The position numbers and the translations under genes are program-made. The notes beneath the pieces are model-generated. The model did no database searches, had not been told where the DNA came from, and saw only the letters and a list, made by a program, of their open reading frames with translations. Below are positions 8,005 through 30,086 of a stretch of 64,000 bases of DNA, piece by piece. The DNA lies in assembly GCA_965242725.1 (NCBI GenBank), contig CBDESZ010000005.1, positions 32,001 through 96,000 on the forward strand, given 5' to 3'. The stretch's first letter is position 1; the number at the start of each line of letters is the position of its first letter. The DNA comes from Alkalispirochaeta sp. GTDB taxonomy: Bacteria > Spirochaetota > Spirochaetia > DSM-27196 > Alkalispirochaetaceae.

Positions 8005-10071
8005 ATGATGGAATGCCATATACGTCCGGCGACGCCGGAAGATCTGCCCTTTCTTGAAGCGCTGGAGGCGGCGTCATTTCCTCCCGGGAGGCGGGTTACC
8101 CGACGTTCCCTTCGACAGAGTCTGGTGAGTCCCATGCAGACCGTGCTGATTGCCCACGTTCACGGCGGTACCGATGGGGGAGGCGTGGCCGGCCCCGACA
8201 GGGTATCGGCACCGGCTGATTCACACGGCAGGCAATCAAATGAGGAGCACGTCGTCCCGGCGGAGCAGGAGGCGGGGGCCGTCATTTTTTTCACCTTCCG
8301 AAAATCGGTTCGCATTTACTCCCTGGCCGTGCTGCCGGAGTTCCGTGGTGAAGGAGTGGGGGAACAGCTCATTCGTGCCGTCTTTGAAGAAGCGCGTATC
8401 GCCGGGATTGCCGCGGTCACTCTGGAGGCGGATGCCGCAAATGACCGGCTTCTCGAATGGTATCGGGGGCTCGGCTTTACGCCTCGGACGGTGCTTCCCG
8501 ACTACTATGCAGACGGTGAGGATGCCGTACGCATGGGGCTCTCCCTTATCACCCAGGAAGACGGCAGTGACTGGCAGTCCGCCAACCCGTCCATTATCGT
8601 CGTCCTCGATAAGCCGTCACAATGGCCCCTCTCTATTCCCAATGTGGAGGTCGTTTCTCCGCGTATGTATCTGGAGGATTTGCGCTTCCAGGTGAGTGAA
8701 GCCTATCGGGTATTCAATTTGTGCGAGAGTTATCGGAAGCAGAAGATGGGTTACTATGTTTCCCTTCTCGCATCCGCCCGGGGGCACAAGGTTGTACCGT
8801 CGGTGATCGGAATCAACGACTTTTCGAACGTCACGCTGGCAAAAAGTGTTGTGGAAGAGGTCTCTCCCCTGATACAGAAACGCCTTGAAAAGGTACGCCC
8901 GGCGGAGTTTGAACTGGATGTCTACTTTGGTGACACCCCTTCCCGGGGGTATTCCGATCTGGCGGCGAAGTTGCAGGCACTTCTTGAGCTCCCTCTGTTC
9001 AGAATCGTCTTTGCCCGCGCCAACGGTCAGTGGCAGGTAAAGCGGGTACAGGTCCTCTCGTTCACCTCGATACCGGACGAGCGGATCGAGAAGGTGGGCC
9101 GCTTTGCCGCACGGTTCTTCCAGCGAAAGCGTTTCAACCGTCCCCGTCTGAAGCATTACCGCTACGATCTGGCGATTCTCGTTAATCCAAATGAAAAGAC
9201 GCCGCCCTCCTCGGCGGAGGCACTTGCGCGCTTCAAGGAGGCGGGCCAGCAGGTAGGTCTCTTTGTCGAGATGATCACCAAACAGGACTACAGCCGCATC
9301 AACGAGTATGACGCACTTTTTATCCGGGAGACGACGGCCGTCGAGAACCACACCTACACCTTTGCCCGCAGGGCGTATACTGAAGGGTTGGTGGTCATCG
9401 ACGATCCGTGGTCAATCCTTCGCTGCTCCAACAAGATGTTCCTCTATGAACGGCTGGCACGGAATCGAATCCCCCAGCCGCGGTCGTGGATTCTGGTGAA
9501 GGGAAAGATTCAGGAGAGCCGGCTGAAGAAGCTTTCCTTTCCTCTGGTGCTGAAACTTCCGGAGAGCAGCTTTTCCCAGGGAGTCTATCGTGTCGATTCC
9601 ATGGATGAACTGCATTTGCAGCTGAAGAAGATGTTCAAGACCGTGGAGGTCGTCATCGCCCAGGAGTTTGTGCAGACCGCCTATGACTGGCGGATCGGAA
9701 TCCTGGACAACGCCCCGCTCTTTGCGTGCAAGTACCACATGGCCTCGGGCCACTGGCAGATCTATAACTGGAAGAGTGACGAGGAGAGTGACGATTTTGT
9801 GGGGGACGTGGAGACATTCCCGATCCCGCAGGTTCCGCCGCAGATTGTACAGACCGCACTTCGCGCCGCGGCATGTGTCGGTGACGGCCTGTACGGTGTC
9901 GACGTGAAGGACATCAATGGCAAGGCCCACGTTATCGAGGTCAATGACAATCCGAATATTGACGCGGGAATCGAAGACGCCGTTCTGGGAGGCGAAATGT
10001 ACCACCGCGTAATGATGTCCTTTTACAACCGCATAGAGCGGGACCGCCTCGTTCCACGCTTTGTGAGTTAG
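8005..10071 (+). CDS. GNAT acetyltransferase fused to an RLAN + RimK-like ATP-grasp ligase
   Basis: N-terminal RimI-like GNAT (YSLAV.PEFRGEGVG; A.N....WY..LGF); VFNLC.SY....GYYVSLLA.ARGH region; ATP-grasp LKLP.SSFS.GV, QEF, DWRIG, YGVD, EVNDNPN. Confidence 0.88.
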   Translation: MMECHIRPATPEDLPFLEALEAASFPPGRRVTRRSLRQSLVSPMQTVLIAHVHGGTDGGGVAGPDRVSAPADSHGRQSNEEHVVPAEQEAGAVIFFTFRKSVRIYSLAVLPEFRGEGVGEQLIRAVFEEARIAGIAAVTLEADAANDRLLEWYRGLGFTPRTVLPDYYADGEDAVRMGLSLITQEDGSDWQSANPSIIVVLDKPSQWPLSIPNVEVVSPRMYLEDLRFQVSEAYRVFNLCESYRKQKMGYYVSLLASARGHKVVPSVIGINDFSNVTLAKSVVEEVSPLIQKRLEKVRPAEFELDVYFGDTPSRGYSDLAAKLQALLELPLFRIVFARANGQWQVKRVQVLSFTSIPDERIEKVGRFAARFFQRKRFNRPRLKHYRYDLAILVNPNEKTPPSSAEALARFKEAGQQVGLFVEMITKQDYSRINEYDALFIRETTAVENHTYTFARRAYTEGLVVIDDPWSILRCSNKMFLYERLARNRIPQPRSWILVKGKIQESRLKKLSFPLVLKLPESSFSQGVYRVDSMDELHLQLKKMFKTVEVVIAQEFVQTAYDWRIGILDNAPLFACKYHMASGHWQIYNWKSDEESDDFVGDVETFPIPQVPPQIVQTALRAAACVGDGLYGVDVKDINGKAHVIEVNDNPNIDAGIEDAVLGGEMYHRVMMSFYNRIERDRLVPRFVS

Positions 10072-10106: not shown

Positions 10107-11585
10107 TTACCGATACCAGTGGTACGGTGTGGAATCGGTGTTTATGTATATCGTCTTGTACTGGCTGTAGCTTTCCAGGCTCGCTTTGTGGACCTCCCGT
10201 CCATATCCCGATTTGCCGAATCCGCCGAAGGGTGATCCGCTCGGGACGGGGTGGTAGTCGTTGATCCAGATTGTTCCGGTTCGAACCTGTCGGCTTACAT
10301 TGAGCGCCGTGTTGATATCGGCGCTCCAGACCGCTCCGGCCAGTCCGTAGGCGGAATCGTTTGCCGTCGCCACCGCCTCGTCGGCGTCTGAAAACATCTG
10401 GACTGCCAGTACGGGGCCGAATATCTCTTCCCGGGCGACCCGCATCTTCCCGGTAACGCCGGTAAGTATTGTCGGCGCCATGTAGGGACCCGAGTCGTAG
10501 ATGCCCCCGGGACCGCCGGAAAGGGGAACACCCCCCGTTGCAAGGGTCGCACCTTCGGACACGCCGATCTTTACGTATTCAAGCACCGATTTCCGTTGCG
10601 CCGCGGAGACGAGGGGACCCATTCGCGTCTCCTCCCGGAGGGGATCACCGACCGATATGGACTCGCACAATCCGACGAGATCCCTGATAAACCGGTCATG
10701 TACCTCCCGGTGGAGAAGGAGTCTGCTTCCGGCTGAACAGACCTGACCCTGGCTCATCATGATCGCCATTGCCGCCGCTTCAACGGCGCGATGGTAATCG
10801 GCGTCGGGAAAGACGATATTTGCCGATTTCCCGCCGAGTTCAAGCGTTACCGGTATGACCCGCTCCGCCGCTTTCGCGGCAACGTGACGTCCGACCTCCG
10901 TGGAACCGGTGAAACTCAATTTGGTGATTCCGGGATGAGAGAGGATCGCCTCACCGCAGGTGCTTCCGCTGCCGGGCAGAACGTTGATCAGCCCCGGCGG
11001 GACGATGTCTGCGGTGATGTCCGCCAGGGTGAGGAGACTCAGGGGAGTCAGGCTCGCCGGCTTTATCACCACTGCGTTGCCCGCGGCGAGAGCGGGGGCG
11101 AGTTTCCATCCGCTGATGAGAAAGGGGAAGTTCCACGGTACGATTGCACCGACAACCCCGAAAGGCTCCCGGACGATCATGCTCATGCGGTGCGGATCGT
11201 GGCGCTTTATCGCATCCTCGTCGCTATGGACGACTCCCGCAAAGTACCGGAACAGGTCTGCCACCGCGTCGATATCAAAGAGCGTTTCCGAGATTACCCT
11301 GCCGGTGTCCATCGTCTCCACTCGGGCAAGGTGCTCCCGATGCGAGGTAATGCGATCGGCGATTTCAAGGAGCGTGTCGGACCGTTCCGTAACGGGGCGC
11401 TCCCACCACGTTCGCCACGCCGCATCTCCCGCCGCAACGGCGTCGTCTACGTCAGCTGCCGTCGCGGCGGCGACGCGGGAGAGCACTGCGCCACCCGCAG
11501 GGTTGTGGACAGGAAAGGAGTCCCCGGAGCGTGCGCTCCGGAAACTCCCGTTGATAAAGAGACCGTACTCTTTCTTCACATCCAT
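10107..11585 (-). CDS. NAD(P)-dependent aldehyde dehydrogenase
   Basis: PWNFP, FTGSTEVG, LELGGKS, GQVCSAGSR and EEIFGP motifs; start ATG 11585 just after the SBP stop. Confidence 0.95.
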   Translation of the reverse strand: MDVKKEYGLFINGSFRSARSGDSFPVHNPAGGAVLSRVAAATAADVDDAVAAGDAAWRTWWERPVTERSDTLLEIADRITSHREHLARVETMDTGRVISETLFDIDAVADLFRYFAGVVHSDEDAIKRHDPHRMSMIVREPFGVVGAIVPWNFPFLISGWKLAPALAAGNAVVIKPASLTPLSLLTLADITADIVPPGLINVLPGSGSTCGEAILSHPGITKLSFTGSTEVGRHVAAKAAERVIPVTLELGGKSANIVFPDADYHRAVEAAAMAIMMSQGQVCSAGSRLLLHREVHDRFIRDLVGLCESISVGDPLREETRMGPLVSAAQRKSVLEYVKIGVSEGATLATGGVPLSGGPGGIYDSGPYMAPTILTGVTGKMRVAREEIFGPVLAVQMFSDADEAVATANDSAYGLAGAVWSADINTALNVSRQVRTGTIWINDYHPVPSGSPFGGFGKSGYGREVHKASLESYSQYKTIYINTDSTPYHWYR

Positions 11586-11590
11586 TGGCG

Positions 11591-12484
11591 TCAGAGGTAT
11601 CCGTTCTCGGTAAGCCATTCCCTGGCGATGTCGGCCGGCTCAACGCCGTCGTCATAGAGCACATTCAGTGCACTCATCGTCTCGGTGTCTATCGCTCCGC
11701 CGAGAGAGTTCAGCGTTTCAATGACTTCGGAGTAGTTCTCTATGACCTCGTCGGCGATCACGTATGCTCCGTTGTAGGCGGGGAAGAACTCCTTGTCGTC
11801 GGGGAGCATCACCAGGTTGAGACGGGCGATGCGGCTGTCCGTGGAGTACGCCGCAGCCACGTCGACTTCACCGGCGTCAATGGCGCGATAGATGAGGCCG
11901 TACTGCATGGGCAGGACGTCGTCAAACTCGATTCCGTAGTGCTCACTCCAGCCGGGATAGGCGTCGGGACGGATGTCGAAGTTGTCGTCCCCAGCGAGGA
12001 CCCACTCCTCGGCGAGACCTGCAAGATCGCTCGCCTTTTCGAGGCCGTACTCCTCTGCCGTCTCCTCCCGGACCACCATGATGTAGGTGTTGTTGAATCC
12101 GAGCGGTTCCGACCAGGTGTATCCGAAGTTCTCTTCAAATCCGTCCTTGACGTAATTCCACGTCTCTTCAGCCGTCAGCTGTTCCCCTTCGTAGCGCAGA
12201 ACACCGGTGAGCTGCGTGCCCGTCCACGTCGGATAGACATCGATTTCATCACCCTCCATTGCCTGATGGAGGACGGAGGAACCGGTGAAACTCGTGTTGA
12301 TCGTCGCGGAATAGGGCGTCTTCTCCTCGATAAGAATCTGTGCCATATGACCGAGAATGACCATCTCGTTGACATCCTGGGCGGCCACACGGATCGTCGG
12401 GGCTTCACCCTCGGCGCTTCCACTGCCAAAAACCATTCCGCCGGCAATTGCCGCCATCAAGAAAACCAGAAAAATTCGTCGCAT
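11591..12484 (-). CDS. Betaine/choline-type (OpuCC/OsmX-family) ABC substrate-binding protein
   Basis: Signal peptide; GEIDVYPTWTGT, PLGFNNTY, AYSTDSRI and L.DDK.FFPAY motifs. Confidence 0.9.
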   Translation of the reverse strand: MRRIFLVFLMAAIAGGMVFGSGSAEGEAPTIRVAAQDVNEMVILGHMAQILIEEKTPYSATINTSFTGSSVLHQAMEGDEIDVYPTWTGTQLTGVLRYEGEQLTAEETWNYVKDGFEENFGYTWSEPLGFNNTYIMVVREETAEEYGLEKASDLAGLAEEWVLAGDDNFDIRPDAYPGWSEHYGIEFDDVLPMQYGLIYRAIDAGEVDVAAAYSTDSRIARLNLVMLPDDKEFFPAYNGAYVIADEVIENYSEVIETLNSLGGAIDTETMSALNVLYDDGVEPADIAREWLTENGYL

Positions 12485-12522
12485 GTGTTTCTCCTTTCGC
12501 GTCAAATTTTGAAACTTCAATA

Positions 12523-13221
12523 TTAATCGTGAGCCGGTATTCCCAGCTTCGCTTCCTTTTTAATGATCCGCCGGGCGCGCCGGTCGGGGCTTACGTAGGT
12601 CTGAAACCACCGCAGACCGTAATCGGCTATGAGGGCCAGCACCGTCGCCGGCAGCGCTCCCGCGAGGATGACCTCGTTTCTGATCGCCGAGAGGCCCGAG
12701 AAGATGAGTCTTCCCAGCCCGCCGCCGCCTATCGCCGCCGCGAGGGCGGCGGTTCCGATGATCCACACCGATGCAACGCGAATACCCGAAATGATCACCG
12801 GCATTGCCAGGGGTATCTGTACCCGCGTCATGATCTGCAGCTCCGTCATGCCCATTCCGCGGGCGGCGTTGGTGAGCTGGACGGGCACGTTCTTTATACC
12901 CGTATAGGTGTTCTGCAGCACCGGCAGCATGGCGTAGAGAAAGAGCGCCGCAATGGCGTTGTCATTGCCGATGCCGAAGACGAAGATGAGAAAGCCGAGC
13001 AGCGCGAGGCTTGGCACGGTCTGAAAAACGTTTGCCACGGCGATGACATAGGGAGCGATTTTTTCGTTTCTCGTTAGATATATGCCCAGGGGTACGCACA
13101 CGACGACGGTGAGGGCGAGGGCGATGCCGGAAATTGCCACGTGTTCCCAGGCGAGGCCGAGCACGCGGTCCCAGTTTCGGCTGAGATATGTCGTCAGGAG
13201 CTGGAAAAAGTTCTGGTTCAC
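12523..13221 (-). CDS. Betaine-type ABC transporter permease (OpuCB/OsmW-like)
   Basis: QTVPSLALLG, EAA-like AARGMGM and IGGGGLG motifs. Confidence 0.92.
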   Translation of the reverse strand: MNQNFFQLLTTYLSRNWDRVLGLAWEHVAISGIALALTVVVCVPLGIYLTRNEKIAPYVIAVANVFQTVPSLALLGFLIFVFGIGNDNAIAALFLYAMLPVLQNTYTGIKNVPVQLTNAARGMGMTELQIMTRVQIPLAMPVIISGIRVASVWIIGTAALAAAIGGGGLGRLIFSGLSAIRNEVILAGALPATVLALIADYGLRWFQTYVSPDRRARRIIKKEAKLGIPAHD

Positions 13222-14348
13222 GAGTGTCCTCCTCCCCGGGTGAGGCGGGTAATGGTGAGTCTGGCGATCCCGCCGTTGGTGATGACCCCGGCGAGCCCTC
13301 CCTGGGGGGTGAGTACCGGAACCGGCGCGTCCAGATCGACGAGGAGTTCCGCCGCGTCCCGGACGGTTGCCTCGGGGAGCGTCAGCTTGCGGTCTTTGCG
13401 TCCAAGGGGCCCCACGGTGGAGTCACCCCGGCGCTCCGCCTCCAGCAGATCCGAGAGGTATACCATGCCCTTCCAGACTCCCTTCGCGTCGACGATCTGT
13501 GCCGTTTCCCGGCTCAGTTCTTCAAGCCCTTCAAGGACGACCGTCGGATCGGTGGCGGGACGAATGGTAAGGGGTGCCTTCTCGATCAGGGTGTCTACGG
13601 GGCTTTCAGGGGATATCTGGGAGAGCCGGTCTTCTCCGATGAAGCTCCGGACAAAATCACTCACCGGTTGATTCTGGAGGTCCTCCGCCGTACCGAGTTG
13701 TTCGATCTTTCCCCGGCGCATGAGGACGATGCGATCGCCCAGCTTCAGCGCTTCGTCGATGTCGTGGGTCACAAAGATGATCGTCTTCTGCACCCGCTTC
13801 TGCAGTTCCAGCAGTTCCTGCTGCAGTTTTCCCTTGGTGATCGGATCGAGCGCACCAAAGGGTTCATCCATGAGGATTACATCGGGATCCGCCGCAAGGG
13901 CGCGGAGGACGCCGATGCGTTGCTGCTGTCCTCCGGATAACTGGGCGGGCAGGCGGTTGCGGTACACCTTGGGGTCCAGTCCGGACATCTCCAATAGCTC
14001 GTCGATCCGCTTTCGCGTCCTTTTCCCTTTCCATCCAAGGAGGTTGGGAACGGTACCGATGTTTTCCCCTACCGTCAGGTGGGGCATGAGGCCGATTTCC
14101 TGAATGACGTAGCCGATGTTCCGACGCAATTCCACGGGGTTTGTGGTTGCGACATCCCTTCCGTCCACGAGCGTCGTGCCGTCGGTCGGCATTTCCAGGC
14201 GGTTGACCATTTTCAGGCTCGTCGTCTTGCCGCAGCCTGAAGGACCGATGAAAACGACAAACTCTCCTTTGGCAATGGACAGGCTGAGATTGTCCAGAGC
14301 GGTCGTGCCGTCGTCATAGACTTTCGTCACATTTCTGAATTCAACCAC
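13218..14348 (-). CDS. Betaine-type ABC transporter ATPase with C-terminal CBS-like region (OpuCA/OsmV-like)
   Basis: GPSGCGKT, LSGGQQQR and MDEPFGALD motifs; start GTG 14348 behind an AGGAGG SD. The longer 14726 start overlaps the hisC-like gene. Confidence 0.92.
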   Translation of the reverse strand: MVEFRNVTKVYDDGTTALDNLSLSIAKGEFVVFIGPSGCGKTTSLKMVNRLEMPTDGTTLVDGRDVATTNPVELRRNIGYVIQEIGLMPHLTVGENIGTVPNLLGWKGKRTRKRIDELLEMSGLDPKVYRNRLPAQLSGGQQQRIGVLRALAADPDVILMDEPFGALDPITKGKLQQELLELQKRVQKTIIFVTHDIDEALKLGDRIVLMRRGKIEQLGTAEDLQNQPVSDFVRSFIGEDRLSQISPESPVDTLIEKAPLTIRPATDPTVVLEGLEELSRETAQIVDAKGVWKGMVYLSDLLEAERRGDSTVGPLGRKDRKLTLPEATVRDAAELLVDLDAPVPVLTPQGGLAGVITNGGIARLTITRLTRGGGHS

Positions 14349-15480
14349 CCAATACCTCCTCAAGTCGGGAAAGAAAGATCGAATTGTCGCCGGTGGTGCC
14401 GACGGAAACGCGGAGATGGCGGTGAAATCCCCACCCGGAGCAGCTGCGCACGATAACGCCCTTTTGCAGCAGCTCCTCGGTGACACGGTCGGCGGCGTGC
14501 GTTCCTTCATCGCATTGATACGATTCAGGGAGTTCAAAAAAGACGAAGTTGGCCTGGGACGGGACGACAGCTGCTCCCAGATCCGCCAGTTCCCGTTCAA
14601 GGCGGCGTCGCTCCGAAATGATCGCCGCCACGGCCATCGATACGGAATCCATCCCGTCGGTGATCGTCGCCAGGGCTCCGGCGATGCCGATTCGGTTGGC
14701 ATTAAAGGGTTCCGCCACTGTGTCAATGGCGTGAATCGTTTCCGGCGCGGCCACGGCGTAGCCCATTCGGGCGCCCGCCAGGCCGTACGCCTTGGAAAAG
14801 GTCCGAACGACGATTACGTGTCGACCCTCGCCGATGAGGGTTTTCCAGTCCGGCAGGAGCTCGGGCGCCGCAAACTCCGCGTACGCCTCGTCGAGTATGA
14901 GCCACCCGTCCGAGGGCAGGGCGTCAAGCAGGCGGTGCAGATCGGTGTGGGCCGTCACCGTTCCCGTCGGATTGTTTGGATTACAGAGCCAGACGAGCTT
15001 TGTCCGGTCGGTGACCTTTTCCGTGAGAGCGTCCAGGTCGACACGGAAATGGCGGTCCAACGGGACGTTGTGTATCGTCCCGTCCATGAAACGGCTTATT
15101 TCCCGATACAGACCATAGGTCGCACCAGGTATGAGCACGTCGTCACCGGGTTGCACAAACATGCGTGCCAGCGTCTCAAGCATCCCCCCCGCACCGTGGG
15201 CCACGGCGATATGGTCTTCCGACAGTCCGTACAACGCACCGATGCGTCGCCGGAGTTCAATAAAGCTGTTTTCCGGATAGGTATGGATGAGCGGCAGTGC
15301 CTGCTGCATCGCATCAAGCGCCGCCGGGAAGGGGGCGTGAGGGTTTTCATTGGAGCCGAGTTTGACAACCTTGCTGAGCCCCAGCTCCCGGCGCACTTCC
15401 TCGGTTGTTTTGCCGGCGATATAGGGATGAACGTCTGAAATGGTTCTGCGTACGCCGGGCAATCTTTTTCTGTCTGTCAT
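14341..15480 (-). CDS. hisC: HisC-family PLP aminotransferase (histidinol-phosphate or aromatic/other amino acid)
   Basis: KLGSNENP, CNPNNPTG, DEAYAEF and RTFSKAYGLAGARMGY motifs. The context is catabolic, so a histidine-biosynthesis role is uncertain. Confidence 0.8.
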   Translation of the reverse strand: MTDRKRLPGVRRTISDVHPYIAGKTTEEVRRELGLSKVVKLGSNENPHAPFPAALDAMQQALPLIHTYPENSFIELRRRIGALYGLSEDHIAVAHGAGGMLETLARMFVQPGDDVLIPGATYGLYREISRFMDGTIHNVPLDRHFRVDLDALTEKVTDRTKLVWLCNPNNPTGTVTAHTDLHRLLDALPSDGWLILDEAYAEFAAPELLPDWKTLIGEGRHVIVVRTFSKAYGLAGARMGYAVAAPETIHAIDTVAEPFNANRIGIAGALATITDGMDSVSMAVAAIISERRRLERELADLGAAVVPSQANFVFFELPESYQCDEGTHAADRVTEELLQKGVIVRSCSGWGFHRHLRVSVGTTGDNSIFLSRLEEVLGG

Positions 15481-17078
15481 GCTTCAATCTCCAGTACCGT
15501 CGGGCCTTCACGATGCATCGCCTCTTCAAGCTTCCGATGGAGGAGGTCAATGTCCGATACCCGTTCACCTGCGGCGCCGTAGGAGCGGGCGAGAGCGATA
15601 AAGTCCGGTCCGAGGTTATCCACGGCGATGCGTCTGCCGGGGTGCCGAATTTCCTCCTCCCGGCGGATTTCTCCGTACCCCCGGTCGTTCCAGATGACAA
15701 TCGGTATTGAAAGCTTCTCCTGTACCGCAACGGCGAGTTCCTGGAGGGTAAACTGGACGCCTCCGTCTCCCGCGAGAGCGACCACCCGCGGCCGATCCGC
15801 CCGTGCGGCAACGCCGATCGCGGCGGGCAGGGCGTAGCCGAGGGTTCCGAATCCCGCGGGATGGAGGAATCCACCGGTACGCCGGGTGGCATACTCGCTG
15901 ATTGCGCAATAGGCGATCGTGGTCATGTCGGCGGTGAGAATACCCGGTTCGCCTCCGCCGTCGTCGGAGAGAGCGGCGGATATCTGTTCCAGAACTGTCC
16001 TCATGCGGTCAACCTGCGTATCCGGCTGCCCGAGGACCGCGGGGAGGGCGGCCGTCGCCGCGCGGCGCAGCGACGCCACGTGTTCCACCGTTTCGTCGTA
16101 TCTTCTTTCGTCAATTCCGTCGGACGGCGATGCCTTCAGAAGTGCTTTCAGAACGGCCGCGGCGTCCATCCGCAGGGCTGCTGCGGGGGTGGACACTGCA
16201 AAGAGGTGCGCCGCCTCGACGTTTATGGCGATCACCTTTCCCCGGGGGGTGAAATTCTCCGTCCACAGGTCGGTACTTGAGAGTTGCGAGCCCACGACCA
16301 TCACCGCGTCGGCGGACTCGATTTCCCTTCGAATTTCTCCGATGTGAAGCCTGCCGCCCAGACTCAAGGGGTCGGTCTCCGGAATGACTCCCTTTCCGGC
16401 GGCGGTGGTAACGACGGGGGTGCCCCACCGTCGGGCAAAGGCGAGAAGTTCCCGATGAGCCCCCGCGGCGCCTCCTCCTGCGATGATGTATCGGCGAGGG
16501 GCGTTCCGGAATATGGAGAGAACTTCCTCAAGGGCAATTGCCTCTTCGGTCGTCTCCTGCAGCACATCGATTGGTATTTCCACGTGGACGGGGCCGGGCC
16601 GGCCGCTCGTCGTCAGCCGATAGGCGTATGCGAGGGTCTCTTCTATTCCGACAGCCTCTTCCACGCGAATCCGCTCCTTCGTAACGGACGAGGTCATCGT
16701 GGTGGGTGATTCAAGCTGATGAAGGTAGCCCCGACTGCCGTTGCGGTAGTGCCGGGGTATGTCGGAGGAGATCAGCAGCAGGGGGACCGAGTCATGACGG
16801 GCCTCACCAAGGGCGGTCAATGAGTTCGTGAGACCCGGGCCGCTGATTACGAGGGCGACACCGGGAACGCCGGTCTCCCGGGCGTATCCGTCCGCCATGA
16901 AGGCGACGCCGCTCTCGTTTCTGCCGGTAATATGTCGGATGGGACTGTCCAATAATGCGTCGTAGACATCCAGATTATGTATGCCCGGAATACCGAAAAG
17001 AGTGGTAACTCCAAGTTTTTCGAGGGTGGAGACGAGGATTTGCGCCCCCGTTTGTGGCTGTGTCGATCTGTTCCTCAA
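15477..17078 (-). CDS. ThDP-dependent enzyme, probable 2-oxo-acid decarboxylase (AruI/5-guanidino-2-oxopentanoate decarboxylase-like)
   Basis: FGIPGIHNL, E.G.AFMADGYAR, GFGTLGYALP and GDGG...N motifs. Confidence 0.85.
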   Translation of the reverse strand: MRNRSTQPQTGAQILVSTLEKLGVTTLFGIPGIHNLDVYDALLDSPIRHITGRNESGVAFMADGYARETGVPGVALVISGPGLTNSLTALGEARHDSVPLLLISSDIPRHYRNGSRGYLHQLESPTTMTSSVTKERIRVEEAVGIEETLAYAYRLTTSGRPGPVHVEIPIDVLQETTEEAIALEEVLSIFRNAPRRYIIAGGGAAGAHRELLAFARRWGTPVVTTAAGKGVIPETDPLSLGGRLHIGEIRREIESADAVMVVGSQLSSTDLWTENFTPRGKVIAINVEAAHLFAVSTPAAALRMDAAAVLKALLKASPSDGIDERRYDETVEHVASLRRAATAALPAVLGQPDTQVDRMRTVLEQISAALSDDGGGEPGILTADMTTIAYCAISEYATRRTGGFLHPAGFGTLGYALPAAIGVAARADRPRVVALAGDGGVQFTLQELAVAVQEKLSIPIVIWNDRGYGEIRREEEIRHPGRRIAVDNLGPDFIALARSYGAAGERVSDIDLLHRKLEEAMHREGPTVLEIEA

Positions 17079-22962: not shown

Positions 22963-24162
22963 CTAACGCAACGCGTCCAGGGCGTCTTTCAGGCGCGTAA
23001 TTCCGCGTTCACACTCCTCGGTGGAACAGGAGTAGGCGATGCGGACGTGTCCTTCCCCGGCACTTCCGAAGACGCTACCGGCAACGGTGGCGATGCCGTG
23101 GTCAAAGAGCAGATAGTCGGCGATCTCCTTGGAACTCTTTCCGAACGAAGAAAGGTTGGGAAATGCGTAGAATGCGCCGTCCGGTACCGCCAGGGTAACG
23201 CCGGGTATCGAATTCAGTCCGTTGACGATGATTTCACGTCGTTTGCCGAACTCGGCGATGCGCTCGCTGATGAGAGACTGGTCCCCCGACAGTCCCGCCG
23301 CCGCGCCGTGCTGAATGAAGGTGTTGACGCAGACGGTGGTGTACTGGCGGATCTTGAGAATGTGCATCGTCAATTCCGGACTCGCAACGGTCCAGCCCAA
23401 TCGCCAGCCGTCCATGCTGTAGGTCTTGGAGAATCCGTTAATGACGACCGTTCGTTCCGCCATTCCTGGAACCGAATAAATGGACGGTGAAGTTTCACCC
23501 TGATCGCCAAAATAGATTCGATTGTAGATCTCGTCACTGATGACGATAAGGTTGTGCTTGATTGCGAGGTCGGCGATCGCCTTGAGGTTCTCCATCGACT
23601 CGGTGCACCCCGTGGGGTTTCCCGGTGAGGTCACACAGATCATCTTGGTTTTCGGCGTGATCTTCTTCGCGACGAGATCCGCTCTGAGGGAGAAATTGTC
23701 GGCTTCGCTGGTTTCCACCTCTACCGGCACGCCTCCTGCGAGGGAGACTGTGGATTTATAGTGGTGCCAGTTGGGGTTGGGAATGATGACCTCGTCACCG
23801 GGATTGATGAAGGCCATCATGGTAACCATGATTCCTTCATTGGCGCCGGCCATGACGATGACCTGTGATTCCGGATCAACATCCAGGCCGCTGTCCAGTT
23901 TTGCCCGCGCGGCGATGGCGTTGCGCAACGCCGGAACTCCCCGGTTGGGTGAGTAGTGCACGTCTCCCCGCTGCATCGATGCGGCGGCCGCATCCTTTAC
24001 GTGCTGGGGTGTGTCAAAATCGGTACGGCCGATTTGCCAGTGAATGACGTCCCGTCCTTCATCTTCAAGCTTTTTGACCGCATCAAAGACGCGGCGAATA
24101 CCTGAAAAAGGTACCTTGTCCAGGCGATCGGCGCCGCGATCGGCGGGTGTTTGGGTGCTCAT
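22963..24162 (-). CDS. Class I/II PLP-dependent aminotransferase (aspartate aminotransferase-like)
   Basis: SPGNPTG, SDEIY, NGFSKTYSMDGWRLG and GAFY motifs. Confidence 0.93.
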   Translation of the reverse strand: MSTQTPADRGADRLDKVPFSGIRRVFDAVKKLEDEGRDVIHWQIGRTDFDTPQHVKDAAAASMQRGDVHYSPNRGVPALRNAIAARAKLDSGLDVDPESQVIVMAGANEGIMVTMMAFINPGDEVIIPNPNWHHYKSTVSLAGGVPVEVETSEADNFSLRADLVAKKITPKTKMICVTSPGNPTGCTESMENLKAIADLAIKHNLIVISDEIYNRIYFGDQGETSPSIYSVPGMAERTVVINGFSKTYSMDGWRLGWTVASPELTMHILKIRQYTTVCVNTFIQHGAAAGLSGDQSLISERIAEFGKRREIIVNGLNSIPGVTLAVPDGAFYAFPNLSSFGKSSKEIADYLLFDHGIATVAGSVFGSAGEGHVRIAYSCSTEECERGITRLKDALDALR

Positions 24163-24179
24163 GGGAACTCCTTTCTCCG

Positions 24180-25835
24180 TTATTTATGCTGTTTCAGAAT
24201 CAACCGGCCATAGTCCGACGGGTCAATGACCGCCTGAACAATCGTCGGTCCATCTGCCGCAAAGGCGGTGTCCAGTGCCTTTTCAAACTCCGCTGCATCG
24301 GTAGCCCGTATGACGGGCACGTCAAACATGGAGTCGGCGTACACCGGCGTATCTTCCTTATTATAAAGGGCTGTGCCGTAGGCGTCGAAACTCTTTTTCT
24401 GCTGTTTGAGGTTAATGAGTTCAAGACTGCGGTCGGAGAGCAGGACAAAGACTATACGCTTGCCGATCCGTTTTGCCGTCGCCATTTCACCGGCCATCAT
24501 GAGAAAACCACCGTCTCCGGTCACACACGCAACTTCCCGGTCCGGCTGGGCAACCTTGGCACCCAGTGCGGAGGGAACGCCAAAGCCCATTGAAGACCAG
24601 CCGTTGTCCATGATCTGGGTATATGTGGCGGGTGTGCGCCACATTTGACCGATCAGGTGAGTGTGGGCTCCGACGTCACATGTCATGATACCGTCTTCCG
24701 GCAACTTCTCCCGCAGTGCTTTGAGAACGGCGATCGGTCCGAAGACGGAGGGGTCCGGCTCAAAATGGGCGAATATTTCCTTCCTGTTCCGCTCGACCTC
24801 CGCCATGTCCCACGCGGACGCGATCGGCTTGAGATCCGCCAGACGTTGCAGGGCCGGTTTGATCGAACCGATGACGTTCAGAACGTCGGGATACACAGTT
24901 TCGTCGATGTCCGCGGGAACGACGTCGATGTTGACCAGTTTGACCGCAGGCATCCACGATTCAAAATTGAACTCGACGGGGTCGTAGCCCGCGGCGACGA
25001 CGAGATCCGCCTGCTTGTGGGTCTTTGCAACGTAGTTGCTCAATGCGTGAAAGAGGACGCCGCCATAGGAGGGGTGGTCCTCAGAGAGGATTCCCTTGGC
25101 CATGGGTGTCAGGACTACCGGAACGGAATGGCGTTCCGCGATCTCTTTGATGAGATCACCTGCGCCGGCGCGGACCGCACCGATTCCGACGGCAAGGACC
25201 GGTTTTTTTGCCGTCGCAAATGCCGCTTCCAGTTCTTTCAGTGCCGCCGCGCTTGGCTCCGGCGTCGGAACCGGTTTTGCCGCCGCCGTGTTTGAACCGG
25301 TCCCGGTGACGAGGGCGTCTTTCGTTCCCAGGTCTTCGGGTAACCCGATATGGACGGGACCGGGGCGTTCCGTCGTGGCTATTGCGTAGGCTCGGTCCAT
25401 CGTGGCATCCACGGAACCCGGCTCAAGGCGCATTGTCGCCTTGGTGATCGGTGTATATAACGTCTGCTGATCGATCGCCATTTGGACTGTCCGGCCCATC
25501 ATGTGTTTCGGCGGCTCAGAGGTAAATGCAAAAACCGGATTCCGGTTGAGAAATGCCGCGCCGACACCGGTGGACAGATTGGTGGAACCCGGGCCGATTG
25601 TCGCGTAACATGCTCCGGGAGCGCCGGTAAAATAGGAATATACCGACGCCATGAAACCGGCAGTTGCCTCATTGGATACGAGAACGAACTCCACGCCTCC
25701 GGTGCGCATCGCCTCCATATATGGCAGCCAGGAACCGCTGGGTGTGCCGAATACATGCCGTACTCCGTGTTCCCGCAGCCAGCGTACTAGTTCCGCCGCA
25801 ACTGTTCCCTTCAATGTATCTTCTCCAGAACTCAC
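24180..25835 (-). CDS. ThDP-dependent enzyme (acetolactate synthase/decarboxylase superfamily)
   Basis: E..AGFMA, GPG.TN, RPGPVH, SMGFGVP and GDGGF motifs. Confidence 0.88.
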   Translation of the reverse strand: MSSGEDTLKGTVAAELVRWLREHGVRHVFGTPSGSWLPYMEAMRTGGVEFVLVSNEATAGFMASVYSYFTGAPGACYATIGPGSTNLSTGVGAAFLNRNPVFAFTSEPPKHMMGRTVQMAIDQQTLYTPITKATMRLEPGSVDATMDRAYAIATTERPGPVHIGLPEDLGTKDALVTGTGSNTAAAKPVPTPEPSAAALKELEAAFATAKKPVLAVGIGAVRAGAGDLIKEIAERHSVPVVLTPMAKGILSEDHPSYGGVLFHALSNYVAKTHKQADLVVAAGYDPVEFNFESWMPAVKLVNIDVVPADIDETVYPDVLNVIGSIKPALQRLADLKPIASAWDMAEVERNRKEIFAHFEPDPSVFGPIAVLKALREKLPEDGIMTCDVGAHTHLIGQMWRTPATYTQIMDNGWSSMGFGVPSALGAKVAQPDREVACVTGDGGFLMMAGEMATAKRIGKRIVFVLLSDRSLELINLKQQKKSFDAYGTALYNKEDTPVYADSMFDVPVIRATDAAEFEKALDTAFAADGPTIVQAVIDPSDYGRLILKQHK

Positions 25836-26032
25836 TCTTATCCCCCTTTGTTTTCGGTGTTCCCGTACATTTGCGTATCGACACCAAAGGCTATTTCAAA
25901 TATTATACCTTATACACGATATATGATATGGATAAATGTATCATGCATGAACGGTATGGGCAACGGAAAAGTCGAATGACTTTTTCCTTGCGCGCTCCAA
26001 TTTTGCGTGATACGATCCGAAATATATCAAAC

Positions 26033-26053
26033 ACAATATCAAATGTATATTGT
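26033..26053. promoter_or_regulatory. Inverted repeat ACAATAT-N7-ATATTGT in the divergent promoter; candidate GntR operator
   Basis: Read directly in the AT-rich 25836-26095 region, which also has repeated GATAT/TATCA motifs. Confidence 0.4.
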
Positions 26054-26095
26054 AGAACGATTACATTTTCCGCAGGAAAGTAGGAGAGGTGTGTT

Positions 26096-28141
26096 TTGAG
26101 TAAACATGATGATGTAGATCAAACCGTTACGACTGAAGCGGGCGGGGATTCTACACCTGAGCGCGTAGTACCGGAGGCGACGGCCGTCGCATCCGAGTCT
26201 CGGACAACCGAGAAGACTCCCGACGGGGAGGCAATTCTCCGGGAGAAAGACCGGGTGTCCAAGTATCGGAACAAGCTATCACCCTTCTGGAAATACGTGG
26301 TGATGGTGATTTCGATTATCTTTGTTTCGTATCATATGTATACGTCGCGATTCGGAATGCCCGATATTATCAAGCACCGGGCCATTCACGTTGCCTTTGT
26401 GCTGGGTCTCGTGTGGATTTACTATCCCGCGACAAAGCGATCACCCCGTTCACGCCCGAGCGTGGTCGATCTCGGTCTGATTGCGGCAACCCTGGTAATG
26501 ATCCTGTATACGTGGTTTACCCGGGACCTCTTCCTCCTTCGAGGCGGGGTGGCGGTGGCATCCGATTACTGGATCGGGGGTATGACAATTCTGCTCGCCA
26601 TTGAGGCGTGTAGACGAGCCGTCGGACCCGGTCTTCTCGCTCTTGTCATTATCTTTATCTTCTATGCCTGGCTTGGCCCATACGCACCCGGCGTATTCGC
26701 CCACCGCGGTCATTCGGTAGAGCGGATCATCTATCAAATGTATCTCACCAGCCAGGGTATTTTCGGTATACCCATCGGCGTTTCTTCGACGTATCTCATC
26801 ATCTTCATCATCCTCGGTGCGATGCTTGAGAAAAGCGGGCTGGGTAAACTCTTTAACGATATCGCCATGTGGGCGGGTGGACGTCTTACCGGCGGTCCCG
26901 CCAAGGTTGCCGTTGTGGCAAGCGCCCTCGTTGGAATGATTCAGGGCAGCGCCGCGACCAACGTCGCCACCTCCGGTGCCTTTACGATCCCCCTCATGAA
27001 GAAGGTCGGGTACAAGCCCTTCTTTGCCGGGGCGATTGAAGCGGCCGCCTCGACGGGTGGTCAGTTCATGCCCCCGATCATGGGTTCCGTTGCGTTTATC
27101 ATGGCGGAATTTCTCGGGGTTCGCTATCTCGGTATCGCCGCGGCGGCGATCATTCCCGCAATCCTCTATTTCGGCGGCGTCTTTTTTCAAATCGACCTGC
27201 GTGCCCGCCGGATGAAGCTTCGGGGACTCTCAAAGGATGAGATGCCCGACGTGAAGAGCACCGTGCTCCGGTACGGACAGATGATTATCCCCGTATTCGT
27301 GCTGATCTTCCTTCTCATCGAGGGACGAACACCGCTCTACGCCGCGTTCTTTACCGTTGTGACGACGTGGCTGCTCTCGTGGATCAGAAAAGAGACGCGA
27401 ATCGGGCCGGCAGCGCTCAAGGATGTCGCGATCAACTCATCCCGGAACATCCTTGGTATCGGTGTTGCCATGGCAAACGCCGGGTTTGTGGTAGCGGTCC
27501 TTTCCATGACGGGAATCGGCGTTATCCTCGCGGACAACATCGTACGTCTCTCCGGAGGATACCTCTTTATTGCGCTGCTCCTGAGTATGGTCGTCGCAAT
27601 CATTCTGGGGATGGGACTTCCCACCAGTGCGTGTTACGTCATCGCCGCCTCGATTACCGTACCGATTCTCCGGGCGATGGACGTTCCCGCATTTCAGGCG
27701 CACTTTTTCGTACTCTATTACTCCGTAATCTCGACGGTAACACCACCGGTCGCATTGTCGGCGTATGTCGGTGCCGGTATGGCGGGAGCTGAACCAAACA
27801 AGGTCGGCTGGACCGCGTTCCGTCTCGCCATTGCCGGATTTATCATTCCCTTCTTTTTCATCTACAGCCCGGAAATGCTGCTCATTGCCGAGAACGGCTG
27901 GCAGATAGCCTGGGCAACGGTGACTGCATTGGCAGGTATCGCTCTGCTCGCCGTCGCTGCTGAAGGGTACTTCACCGTCGTATTGCCGCTGTGGAGTCGT
28001 GCGATCTTCCTTGCCGGTTCATTGATGCTCATTGCTCCCGGTGTATTCGGGGACTTTATCGGTCTTGGACTCGCGGCTCTGGCATGGTTGAGCACCTTCC
28101 TGGTGAAACGCATGGCCGCCAATAAGATGGTCCAGGCGTAG
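26096..28141 (+). CDS. TAXI-type TRAP transporter, fused 4TM/12TM permease
   Basis: GGPAKVAV, ASTGGQ.MPP.MG, LGMGLP and TPPVAL motifs. Confidence 0.95.
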   Translation: MSKHDDVDQTVTTEAGGDSTPERVVPEATAVASESRTTEKTPDGEAILREKDRVSKYRNKLSPFWKYVVMVISIIFVSYHMYTSRFGMPDIIKHRAIHVAFVLGLVWIYYPATKRSPRSRPSVVDLGLIAATLVMILYTWFTRDLFLLRGGVAVASDYWIGGMTILLAIEACRRAVGPGLLALVIIFIFYAWLGPYAPGVFAHRGHSVERIIYQMYLTSQGIFGIPIGVSSTYLIIFIILGAMLEKSGLGKLFNDIAMWAGGRLTGGPAKVAVVASALVGMIQGSAATNVATSGAFTIPLMKKVGYKPFFAGAIEAAASTGGQFMPPIMGSVAFIMAEFLGVRYLGIAAAAIIPAILYFGGVFFQIDLRARRMKLRGLSKDEMPDVKSTVLRYGQMIIPVFVLIFLLIEGRTPLYAAFFTVVTTWLLSWIRKETRIGPAALKDVAINSSRNILGIGVAMANAGFVVAVLSMTGIGVILADNIVRLSGGYLFIALLLSMVVAIILGMGLPTSACYVIAASITVPILRAMDVPAFQAHFFVLYYSVISTVTPPVALSAYVGAGMAGAEPNKVGWTAFRLAIAGFIIPFFFIYSPEMLLIAENGWQIAWATVTALAGIALLAVAAEGYFTVVLPLWSRAIFLAGSLMLIAPGVFGDFIGLGLAALAWLSTFLVKRMAANKMVQA

Positions 28142-28268
28142 CGATATACAAGTTGTCGAAGGGTCCGGCGCGCGGAAAGCGCCGGACCTCCCATAATGGA
28201 TGGAACCGTCGGTAGCGGCGGTTGATTATAGGAATCAATGCCTACGGGCAGAAAGAGGAGGAGTAACG

Positions 28269-29279
28269 ATGTTACAGCTCATGAAGAAAGCCATAGTTAT
28301 GGCTCTGGTACTTGGCGTGGTCCTCGCCGGTGTGACCTTTGCCGGCGGCCAGCAGGAAGGTGGTCAGGCGGCAGGCAGTGCACCGTCGGGACCGATCTTT
28401 ATCACCATGGGAACCGCCGGTGTCGGTGGTATGAACTATCCCACGGGTATCGCCATGGCATCCCTCTGGAACGCCAACATTCCCGGAATGAAGGCCGTTG
28501 CCATCGCCACCGGTGGAAGTCCCCACAACATTGACCTGTTGCGGACCAACGACGCCGACGTTGCGGTTTGTCGCTCCCTTGAAGCGTACCGCGCGTATAT
28601 CGGTGAAGAGCCCTATCCGGAAGAGATGCCCTGGATGCGTGCCCTTACGGGTGGTCTCTTTATCGACGTCTTCCAGGTTGTGGCGTCCAAGGACAGCGGT
28701 ATCAATTCCGTCGCAGACTTTGCGGGCAAGCGAATCGTCGTCGGTCCCGTTGGTAGCGGTGGTGAGGTTGATGCACGGGAAACCCTTGCAGCATACGGTC
28801 TGACCTATGACGACATGGACGTCAGCTTTGTTGAGTTCTCCCAGGGTATGGACATGCTCAAGGACGGACTTGCTGACGCCGGTATCCTCGGTGTTGCCCT
28901 TGGTGCCTCCACGATGCAGGAGCTCATGCTCGACGGACATTTCAAACTGATTCCCATCGACGATGAAGGCCTTGCAAATCTGAAGCAGCGCAACGAGTTC
29001 TACATTCGTGCACGGATCCCCGCGGAAACCTATCCCAACCAGCCGGAAGCAGTACCGACCGTCGGAACGCCTCCGGACACGATTATCGTTCGTGCGGACA
29101 CGGACGCGGACCTCGTCTACCAGATGACCAAGACGCTGTACGAGAACCGGCCCGCAATCCATGCAGTTTCCCCGCTGCTCACGCAGTTCACCGAGGAACT
29201 GGTACTTGAAGAAATGCTGATCCCCTATCATGACGGTGCCAAACGGTACTTTGTTGAACAGGGTTGGCTGGAAGAATAG
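28269..29279 (+). CDS. TAXI-family TRAP solute-binding protein
   Basis: GTAG.GG..YP, TGGS..N, GP.GSG and IPYHDGA.RYF motifs; GAGGAGG SD. Confidence 0.93.
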   Translation: MLQLMKKAIVMALVLGVVLAGVTFAGGQQEGGQAAGSAPSGPIFITMGTAGVGGMNYPTGIAMASLWNANIPGMKAVAIATGGSPHNIDLLRTNDADVAVCRSLEAYRAYIGEEPYPEEMPWMRALTGGLFIDVFQVVASKDSGINSVADFAGKRIVVGPVGSGGEVDARETLAAYGLTYDDMDVSFVEFSQGMDMLKDGLADAGILGVALGASTMQELMLDGHFKLIPIDDEGLANLKQRNEFYIRARIPAETYPNQPEAVPTVGTPPDTIIVRADTDADLVYQMTKTLYENRPAIHAVSPLLTQFTEELVLEEMLIPYHDGAKRYFVEQGWLEE

Positions 29280-29293
29280 TTCCTTTGTTACCG

Positions 29294-29323
29294 GGCCGTC
29301 TTCGTCATTTGACGAAGGCGGCC
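29294..29323 (+). terminator. Stem-loop after the TAXI SBP gene
   Basis: GGCCGTCTTCGTCA/TGACGAAGGCGGCC stem; weak U tract. Confidence 0.55.
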
Positions 29324-29372
29324 TTCATCGGTCACCATGGTTGGACGTATGTTATAATTGTCGAGAGGTTGT

Positions 29373-30086
29373 ATGGTCACCAAGAAGAAACCGAAAAAAC
29401 CAACGCTGATATCCGTTCGTGATCAAATATACGAGGGAATAAAAGAGATGATTCTGACCAACTCATACGAGCCTGGGCAGATTCTGCAAATAGATCGTCT
29501 GGCCGATGAGTTTGGTGTGAGCAGCACTCCCATTCGGGAAGCGCTTATCCGCCTTGAGAGTTTCGGTCTTGTCACGCTTATTCCCAACAAGGGCGCCCGC
29601 GTCGCCGAAATCAGTATTGATGACGTTGAACATACCTGGGAAATGCGAATGCTTCTTGAGCCCCACGCCGCCCGGGTGACTGCAGGACTCTCAATCGATG
29701 CCGAGCTGGGACCTATATACCGGACCGTGGAGTGGATTCTCCAGGGGAATTACGATTTCGAAACCTACATTGACAGCGATCTCAAACTGCACGAACAGCT
29801 GTACACCCATCTTCCCAATCCCATCCTCAAGGAGACGGTGCAGCGGGTTCACCAGCTTTCCATGCGGATGCGATACTTTCCGGAAGGGTTCTCCCAGATG
29901 AAAGACGCCGTCATTCACCGCGTGTCCGAAGAACACATGGCGATTCTTGACGCGCTGATGTCTCATAATCCCGATCAGGCGGCGGAGGCGGTGCTGGTCC
30001 ACATAAGTCACGGGAAAGACCGCGCCGTGGAATGCCTGCGGGAAGTTGAAATCGCCGGAGCCGGCGCGGAGACGGGACGTCAGTAA
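29373..30086 (+). CDS. GntR-family regulator (FCD domain)
   Basis: wHTH LADEFGVSSTPIREAL; FCD motifs D..LH and EH..ILDA; TG-TATAAT and GAGAGG upstream. Confidence 0.93.
   Translation: MVTKKKPKKPTLISVRDQIYEGIKEMILTNSYEPGQILQIDRLADEFGVSSTPIREALIRLESFGLVTLIPNKGARVAEISIDDVEHTWEMRMLLEPHAARVTAGLSIDAELGPIYRTVEWILQGNYDFETYIDSDLKLHEQLYTHLPNPILKETVQRVHQLSMRMRYFPEGFSQMKDAVIHRVSEEHMAILDALMSHNPDQAAEAVLVHISHGKDRAVECLREVEIAGAGAETGRQ

Follow-up and report, generated by a model that had tools for sequence, protein, structure and literature searches.

The 64,000-nucleotide stretch of Alkalispirochaeta sp. DNA analyzed here (the window) carries a six-gene cassette on its minus strand at positions 10107-17078. 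Judged by sequence comparison, and with defined and mixed candidate substrates taken together, the cassette very probably shortens an imported cationic amino acid in three steps (transamination, decarboxylation and oxidation of the aldehyde). We tentatively favor a methyl-onium alpha-amino acid as the substrate, which would be shortened by one carbon in an oxygen-independent manner to give a betaine. The three-step pathway, which had been proposed in the initial annotation, is likely because the thiamine diphosphate (ThDP)-dependent decarboxylase is AruI-like, the transaminase belongs to a separate HisC clade, the genes form a conserved unit and the binding protein has retained an onium cage. 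That proposal was further borne out by the findings that the genome contains HisC-type genes besides the transaminase gene and that an aldehyde:ferredoxin oxidoreductase (AOR) lies beside several loci lacking the aldehyde dehydrogenase (ALDH). As in Ehrlich-type pathways, a transaminase, a ThDP decarboxylase and an aldehyde-oxidizing enzyme are linked, and their catalytic residues are intact. We conclude that the cassette is a real, conserved and undescribed variant of the AruH-AruI-KauB/Ehrlich type that occurs in several anaerobe phyla. Its features are as follows.

15477-17078, minus strand: ThDP-dependent enzyme, 533 amino acids (aa), predicted cationic 2-oxo-acid decarboxylase
14341-15480, minus strand: HisC-paralog pyridoxal phosphate (PLP) transaminase (subfamily I-beta), 379 aa, cassette-specific clade
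13218-14348, minus strand: ProV/OpuCA-type ATP-binding cassette (ABC) ATPase, 376 aa, weak C-terminal CBS match
12523-13221, minus strand: single ABC permease (BPD_transp_1), 232 aa
11591-12484, minus strand: OpuAC-family binding protein of the OpuC/ProX(Archaeoglobus)/EgtUC type, subcluster F-III, 297 aa
10107-11585, minus strand: NAD(P)-dependent ALDH with catalytic Cys and Glu, 492 aa
17159..17187, minus strand: sigma-70-type promoter-like site TTGACT-17-TATAGT, ~80 nt upstream of the first gene

The six coupled minus-strand genes described in the initial annotation are intact open reading frames (ORFs) with zero internal stops, and their family assignments matched. The ThDP enzyme and transaminase genes share an ATGA overlap, the transaminase and ATPase genes overlap by 8 nt, and the ATPase and permease genes share a GTGA overlap. 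Gaps of 38 nt and 5 nt separate the binding protein gene from the permease and ALDH genes, respectively; an alternative upstream ATG for ALDH is possible at 11618.

Conservation of the cassette among spirochaetes

A scan with the binding protein identified 13 spirochaete loci. All six genes were present in identical order in 11 of these, some of which were clipped by contig ends, and the remaining two are contigs of one assembly that together contain five genes. Because the flanks vary between lineages, the cassette is taken to be self-contained. Among 99 genomes of the host order, the binding-protein orthologue was found in 21, the decarboxylase in 20, both in 19 and neither in 77, counts that are descriptive only, given that many of these related genomes are incomplete. 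Three genomes were discordant; two of these cases were contig breaks, and the third was a lone binding-protein orthologue (L156:9669-10568, 55% identity) situated between CHASE2-cyclase and alpha/beta hydrolase genes. A sample of 300 further genomes from across the phylum contained no decarboxylase match at E 1e-80. Distances among four of the cassette genes were correlated across 21 loci (Spearman 0.62-0.79), with the caveat that these loci include kin and are not independent. The conserved order and the co-occurrence across the 99 genomes indicate that the genes are linked beyond chance, and the neighborhood conservation that the initial annotation had named as a check was thereby observed.

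Co-occurrence, together with an order that is kept across phyla, argues against the very improbable alternative that an ordinary glycine betaine, choline or carnitine importer shares an operon with a HisC of housekeeping function and a ThDP enzyme unrelated to it, with no substrate common to them. The genome containing the binding protein alone is a point in favor of this alternative.

The ThDP enzyme is related to AruI

The best family match of the ThDP enzyme was PRK07524 (AruI type), although its score of 433.7 bits was under the curated cut-off of 500. Models of acetohydroxyacid synthase (AHAS) scored no higher than 287 bits, whereas their cut-offs are at least 509, and the RFDDR stretch of E. 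coli AHAS was not kept. On these grounds AHAS identity was rejected. A separate ThDP paralog nearer AHAS was found on contig C18 of the genome; this paralog and the missing RFDDR stretch also speak against an ordinary importer with unrelated neighbors. Residues E55, H34 and H120 and the GDG motif of the cassette enzyme were invariant (40/40).

In the phylogenetic tree the enzyme grouped with proteins from Spirochaetota, Synergistota, Bacillota and KSB3. This anaerobe clade (support 0.62) was sister to a large AruI-like group (joint support 1.0), which includes four plasmid proteins annotated as 5-guanidino-2-oxopentanoate decarboxylase that lie in widely varied gene contexts. The Sinorhizobium meliloti AruI homologue IlvB1 was assayed on cationic 2-oxo acids derived from arginine and ornithine, and 5-amino-2-oxopentanoate was decarboxylated sevenfold better than the guanidino compound (PMC7268258). 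The activity of IlvB1 indicates that the AruI-like family handles cationic 2-oxo acids and is not arginine-specific. No transaminase-decarboxylase fusion was found among the best 150 representatives; nine long proteins that were scanned had other domains or none.

Several relatives of the decarboxylase occurred in other settings. A sister subclade with altered motifs (L037, L040 and L045) lies beside IclR regulators. Its partners in L037 are an IlvD-type dehydratase, a LarA-type protein and an MttB-family methyltransferase, those in L040 are a D-2-hydroxyacid dehydrogenase, a family-5 binding protein, a transaminase and a corrinoid protein, with no betaine importer, and L045 contains a distant AOR. 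These contexts suggest that the sister subclade may act on methylated hydroxy-acid substrates. On a Shinella plasmid (L143:4952-15569), an AruI-like gene accompanies genes for an NADH:flavin oxidoreductase, a transaminase, electron-transfer flavoprotein and purU/folD, which hints at an N-methylated substrate.

The transaminase belongs to a separate HisC clade

The transaminase passed the HisC model TIGR01141 with 306 bits (cut-off 276.55), as a housekeeping HisC would. The initial annotation had asked whether a separate hisC exists, and the genome contains two further HisC-type genes. Both (L007:10128-11255 and L008:12469-13551) are divergent from a 242-aa ORF that is followed by feoB, and both are outside any his operon. 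The other his genes that were searched for, hisB and hisD, are on other contigs than the cassette. Within the family, a further HisC-type gene was found in 8 of 10 cassette genomes and in 11 of 12 genomes without the cassette, whereas the cassette transaminase was the sole HisC-type match in the other two cassette genomes (80% and 90% complete), which an ordinary importer beside a housekeeping HisC would accommodate.

When 40 cassette transaminases (every third of 120) were compared with 31 other spirochaete HisC proteins, they formed one long-branch clade (support 0.81). Similarly, six cluster representatives grouped with the transaminase of the window against the 144 nearest outsiders (support 0.96). 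The PLP and carboxylate residues K230, R238, N169, R345 and R357 were present in 120 of 120 homologues; in the aromatic aminotransferase (ArAT) of Mycobacterium tuberculosis (Mtb), the equivalent Asn and two Arg residues hold the amino-acid carboxylate (PMC4703992). Three other residues distinguished the cassette proteins from the outsiders, H95 (120/120 versus 4/144), Y122 (120/120 versus 6/144) and E127 (119/120 versus 4/144). Conversely, Arg or Lys at positions 254 and 256 was found in none of the cassette proteins but in 114 and 125 of the 144 outsiders. As far as an alignment can reveal, these differences show a pocket that has been retuned and made less basic. E257 was also considered as a clade-specific acid, as the 31 spirochaete HisC proteins have 0 Glu and 4 Asp at this position, but it was dropped because 44 of the 144 outsiders have Glu. 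The Asn103/Tyr127/Met129/Tyr261 tetrad of Mtb histidinol-phosphate aminotransferase (HspAT; PMC4703992) is replaced by Gly or Glu/Tyr/Leu/Phe in the cassette transaminase, a weak test because many other HisC-family proteins also deviate. A housekeeping HisC was rejected as the identity of this enzyme, which is not the sole HisC, lies outside a his operon, forms its own clade and departs from the HspAT tetrad. The cassette transaminase clade also includes a divergent protein, P0385, that is named from Acetohalobium arabaticum.

We considered whether the cassette is an arginine transaminase pathway variant in which arginine, methylarginines or homoarginine would be converted to a guanidino acid and the HisC paralog would replace AruH, which we regard as quite unlikely. 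The closest family and the sister clade of the decarboxylase are AruI-like, and the gain of E127 and loss of Arg/Lys at 254 and 256 would also suit such substrates, as would the cage of the binding protein, since methylated guanidines can bind aromatic cages. However, no ureohydrolase adjoins the cassette in the scanned flanks, and the two arginase-family genes of the window's genome are on other contigs. Arginase-family genes occur in 20 of 22 family genomes, and none was detected in G313 or G317, both of which carry the cassette. In addition, the transaminase is not of the AspC/AruH type that adjoins many distant AruI-like genes, and arginine import usually depends on family-3 binding proteins.

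The binding protein retains an aromatic cage

The ABC ATPase scored 346 bits with TIGR01186, over the cut-off of 326.6, and its C-terminal CBS match had E=3e-5. A structure model of the binding protein (pLDDT 90.7) matched AfProX, OpuCC, OpuBC and EgtUC with TM-scores up to 0.84 (of query). Residues were mapped through an alignment with OpuCC, and EgtUC numbering was assigned by motif spacing, with the residue roles taken from the published account of this class (PMC9732360). The aromatic cage residues W87, Y134, Y213 and Y237 and residue N132 were kept in 120 of 120 proteins, with Phe at position 213 in 7. Q36, T90 and R172 make up the carboxylate site, with T90 in 120/120 and R172 in 119/120 proteins, while S69 and N168 occupy the imidazole-contact positions of EgtUC (T275 and E375). 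Acidic residues near the cleft are D166, E/D167 and D170. The fold, the four-aromatic cage with its Asn base and the Thr/Arg carboxylate site place the protein in subcluster F-III, like EgtU, AfProX and OpuCC (PMC9732360). It differs from these proteins in having W87 for F293/Tyr, Q36 for K242, V38 for G244 and N168 for E375, and it is 30-37% identical to them; an EgtU-type ergothioneine importer was rejected because of the replacement of K242, G244, F293 and E375.

The cage would suit a methylated onium group. Choline and glycine betaine are served separately by this genome, which encodes four additional strong OpuAC-type proteins as well as two BCCT carriers, and has a betaine-aldehyde dehydrogenase (BADH) gene near that of a choline-type binding protein.

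The same three reactions on histidine or N-methylhistidine would give (methyl)imidazole-acetate. In this case the cage and carboxylate site would receive the alpha-amino end, and the ring would take the place of the ergothioneine ring in EgtUC. We consider this alternative unlikely, although several observations are consistent with it. The transaminase has HisC ancestry, and its Y122 is at the position of Mtb HspAT Tyr127, which contacts the imidazole or amino group of histidinol-phosphate (PMC4703992). In the binding protein, S69 and N168 are at the imidazole positions and T90 and R172 are kept. Urocanase was found in 2 of the 22 family genomes, neither of them among the 10 that carry the cassette, which argues that no Hut route competes. 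Finally, the gene for a HutH-like lyase neighbors that of a Rhizobium binding protein with 37% identity. On the other hand, 61 of the 120 transaminases have Gly where HspAT has Asn103, EgtUC G244, which leaves room for the ring, is Val, Ile or Phe here, and E375 is Asn. Moreover, the Rhizobium protein lacks the cassette signature, having Y for W87, E for N168 and K for Q36, and the assayed AruI-type homologue works on aliphatic chains. The Rhizobium plasmid cluster (L167:2404-13087) encodes the OpuC-type binding protein, HutC, the HutH-like lyase (below the hutH cut-off), a CoA-transferase, a MaoC protein and a cyclodeaminase, and it is possibly a pathway for a histidine derivative.

Aldehyde oxidation and carriers outside the spirochaetes

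With the BADH model TIGR01804, the cassette ALDH scored 513.5 bits, below the cut-off of 668.6, whereas the separate BADH of the genome (contig C34) scored 706.5 bits. The cassette ALDH was therefore rejected as the BADH of this genome.

A metagenome scan gave 73 loci, which derive from the 80 top-ranking among 583 confirmed matches. Within this set, the genes for decarboxylase, transaminase, ATPase, permease and binding protein were found in this order in 8 loci. One of these also has ALDH; the other seven grouped with Synergistota proteins in the tree, and two of the seven have identical decarboxylases. AOR was encoded within ~2 kb in three of the seven Synergistota-like loci (L036, L039 and L042) and also upstream of the contig-cut locus L043, while the upstream flank of L038 is too short to tell. 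The AORs of L036, L039, L042 and L043 are one group, 52-76% identical, in two separate lineages. Going by this gene context, AOR can stand in for ALDH in Synergistota-like hosts.

By accession number, the decarboxylase and the transaminase are neighbors in Clostridiaceae 35-E11 and in a KSB3 bacterium, and in Fusibacter paucivorans the decarboxylase stands two entries away from the binding protein; such close accessions are indirect evidence of gene linkage. We conclude that at least four phyla include anaerobes with the cassette pathway. Among cultured organisms, Thermovirga lienii and F. paucivorans carry the decarboxylase, and the named cassette hosts live in saline anoxic habitats. Only two distant matches were found in viral contigs, plasmid homologues of the decarboxylase and the binding protein were only 34-38% and at most 37% identical, respectively, and the ESM Atlas gave generic family names only.

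This host range bears on a further alternative, namely that the same chemistry acts on another or on several cationic amino acids, chiefly to obtain nitrogen and reducing power, and that the acid is released. Examples of such substrates are mono- and dimethyl-lysine, trimethylornithine or an unlisted algal amino acid. The ThDP clade extends to hosts known as amino-acid fermenters, coupling to AOR would capture low-potential electrons, and the sister subclade of the decarboxylase has other entry enzymes (2-hydroxyacid dehydrogenase, LarA and IlvD-type dehydratase). In addition, IlvB1 and AspC are promiscuous (PMC7268258). However, the pockets are invariant across several phyla, which suggests one defined ligand, and we regard this alternative as improbable.

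Proposed pathway and candidate substrates

In the pathway that we favor, the OpuC-type ABC system would capture a methylated cation in its aromatic cage and import it, after which the HisC-paralog transaminase would strip the alpha-amino group. The AruI-like ThDP enzyme would then convert the 2-oxo acid to an aldehyde, which would be oxidized to the acid by ALDH, or by AOR in Synergistota-like hosts. A net-cationic amino acid would thus become a net-neutral betaine, delta-valerobetaine or dimethylsulfoniopropionate (DMSP), with a gain of amino-nitrogen and reducing power. The product could be retained as an osmolyte, following the logic of OpuB-GbsAB, or released, as the cassette lacks a downstream enzyme. 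Genes that might act on the product were sought in the genomes of the family. The MttB family, which could demethylate it, was found in 1 of 22 genomes, and that genome is without the cassette. The absence of a downstream gene, urocanase and MttB from the cassette genomes of the family suggests that the acid is an end product. As to S-methylmethionine, no stand-alone S-methylmethionine:homocysteine methyltransferase was found, the sole PF02574 match being in a 1237-aa frame that is likely MetH.

Two methyl-onium substrates were weighed separately. A trimethyllysine-type substrate (N-epsilon-trimethyllysine) ranks first, if rather unlikely when taken singly, and S-methylmethionine comes next. 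On chemical grounds, trimethyllysine would best join the cage with AruI-type chain length, its intermediates should be stable, its 2-oxo acid could not cyclize, and the distance from the charge to C2 would equal that in the 2-oxo acid of arginine. S-methylmethionine, a doubtful candidate by itself, would match the length of the binding pocket; DMSP-aldehyde is unstable (PMC11464771).

Several observations weigh against a methyl-onium substrate or an osmolyte role. The cage is ancestral for this protein class, and thus its retention need not imply a methylated ligand. The kept T90 and R172 beside the cage would suit a short cation-carboxylate distance over the long chain of trimethyllysine; such a distance would be better matched by S-methylmethionine or a histidine-like pose, and the S69/N168 positions would fit histidine derivatives. 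Because the four plasmid contexts vary, an AruI-like annotation is no marker of the substrate. Neither AOR nor ALDH was found in the available flanks of L034, L035 and L041, and the loci of the AOR type fit energy-yielding catabolism equally well. Osmotic control was not supported either, as no Rfam riboswitch match reached the gathering score in 13 loci and no conserved regulator was found among the scanned flanking genes, which also included no conserved downstream enzyme. BCCT carriers, a rough osmolyte marker, were found in 14 of 20 cassette genomes and 36 of 79 others, which is a weak comparison, and in 0 of the 4 from one genus.

Relationship to known systems

The arginine transaminase pathway of Pseudomonas aeruginosa consists of AruH-AruI-KauB(-GbuA). 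Like this pathway and AspC-IlvB1 of S. meliloti, the cassette combines a transaminase, an AruI-like decarboxylase from a sister clade and an aldehyde dehydrogenase. It differs in that its transaminase is of the HisC and not the AspC/AruH type, its decarboxylase is below the PRK07524 cut-off, it includes an OpuC-type importer, it has no linked ureohydrolase in the scanned flanks, its hosts are anaerobe lineages, and AOR can replace ALDH. Ehrlich-type catabolism, including AOR-coupled versions in anaerobes, acts on aromatic and branched-chain amino acids and methionine. The three-step shortening by one carbon is the same, but the importer and pockets of the cassette instead point to a cationic side chain.

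DMSP has reportedly been linked to transamination before, in that Rhodes et al. (1997) are said to have proposed a transamination route from S-methylmethionine for plants; the enzymes of a plant route with a transaminase and a ThDP decarboxylase were not found to be identified in the literature searched. In Spartina, DMSP is made from S-methylmethionine by SDC-DOX-ALDH (PMC11464771), and MmtN bacteria also synthesize it via S-methylmethionine (PMC9135737). The synthesis enzymes named in the accessible parts of these reports are MmtN, BurB, DsyB, DsyGD and SDC-DOX, with no ThDP step among them (PMC11464771, PMC9135737). Like the known routes, the cassette would finish with oxidation of DMSP-aldehyde by ALDH. 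In contrast to the identified routes, in which decarboxylation comes first, the cassette would begin with transamination, rely on a ThDP enzyme and obtain its precursor by import, and it lacks a methyltransferase.

In Bacillus subtilis OpuB-GbsAB, imported choline is converted to glycine betaine by two dehydrogenases under the regulator GbsR (PMC7396694). As there, an importer of the OpuB/OpuC type with the same class of binding protein would bring in a cationic precursor for betaine production. However, OpuB-GbsAB is GbsR-controlled and has no transaminase or decarboxylase, whereas the cassette has no regulator. DavB/DavA converts trimethyllysine to delta-valerobetaine, DavB being a monooxygenase, and this is the one explanation given there for delta-valerobetaine (PMC11773067). 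Substrate and product would be identical if the trimethyllysine guess is true, but the cassette lacks a monooxygenase gene and would need no oxygen.

No prior description of the six-gene set was found in the literature searched, with most subscription journals outside its coverage. At present, annotations assign genes of the cassette to histidine biosynthesis, to the catabolism of arginine or to the uptake of glycine betaine. If trimethyllysine or S-methylmethionine is the substrate, the cassette would yield delta-valerobetaine or DMSP, compounds of relevance to host metabolism and the sulfur cycle, by an anaerobic route, and spirochaetes of saline habitats, Synergistota and clostridia would be producers of these compounds. 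A histidine- or arginine-type substrate would make it a modest yet real new catabolic variant.

Promoter region, surroundings and other loci

At the window locus, one promoter-like site was found against 2.9 expected in shuffled sequences, which alone is not significant. Consensus-like sites (>=9/12) were found upstream in 19 of 27 loci, at near-equal distance in the closest relatives. No shared operator was seen in the 27 upstream regions except the promoter-like site. The GC content of the cassette genes (0.58-0.62) is like that of their surroundings.

The neighbors of the cassette are unrelated, a convergent GNAT-RimK fusion gene and a divergent zupT. The former (8005-10071) encodes a 688-aa GNAT-RLAN-RimK-type ATP-grasp fusion, and none was seen beside related cassettes. 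The window also encodes a large subunit of [FeFe]-hydrogenase (296-2107), consistent with a fermenting anaerobe as the host. In L017-L019, the cassette adjoins homologues of genes just upstream of the [FeFe]-hydrogenase gene on contig C5. Elsewhere in the genome, a 237-aa frame (G000:C6:115672-116313) matched only positions 1-214 of 466 in an aromatic ammonia-lyase profile and is perhaps a broken or split gene.

The segment at 22963-30086 of the window may represent another transaminase-decarboxylase unit, in which the gene for a second ThDP enzyme (24180-25835) is coupled to one for an AspC-type transaminase (22963-24162). A TAXI-TRAP transporter and a GntR regulator are encoded divergently from this pair. 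Close homologues of this second ThDP enzyme were found in 8 of the 99 genomes of the host order.

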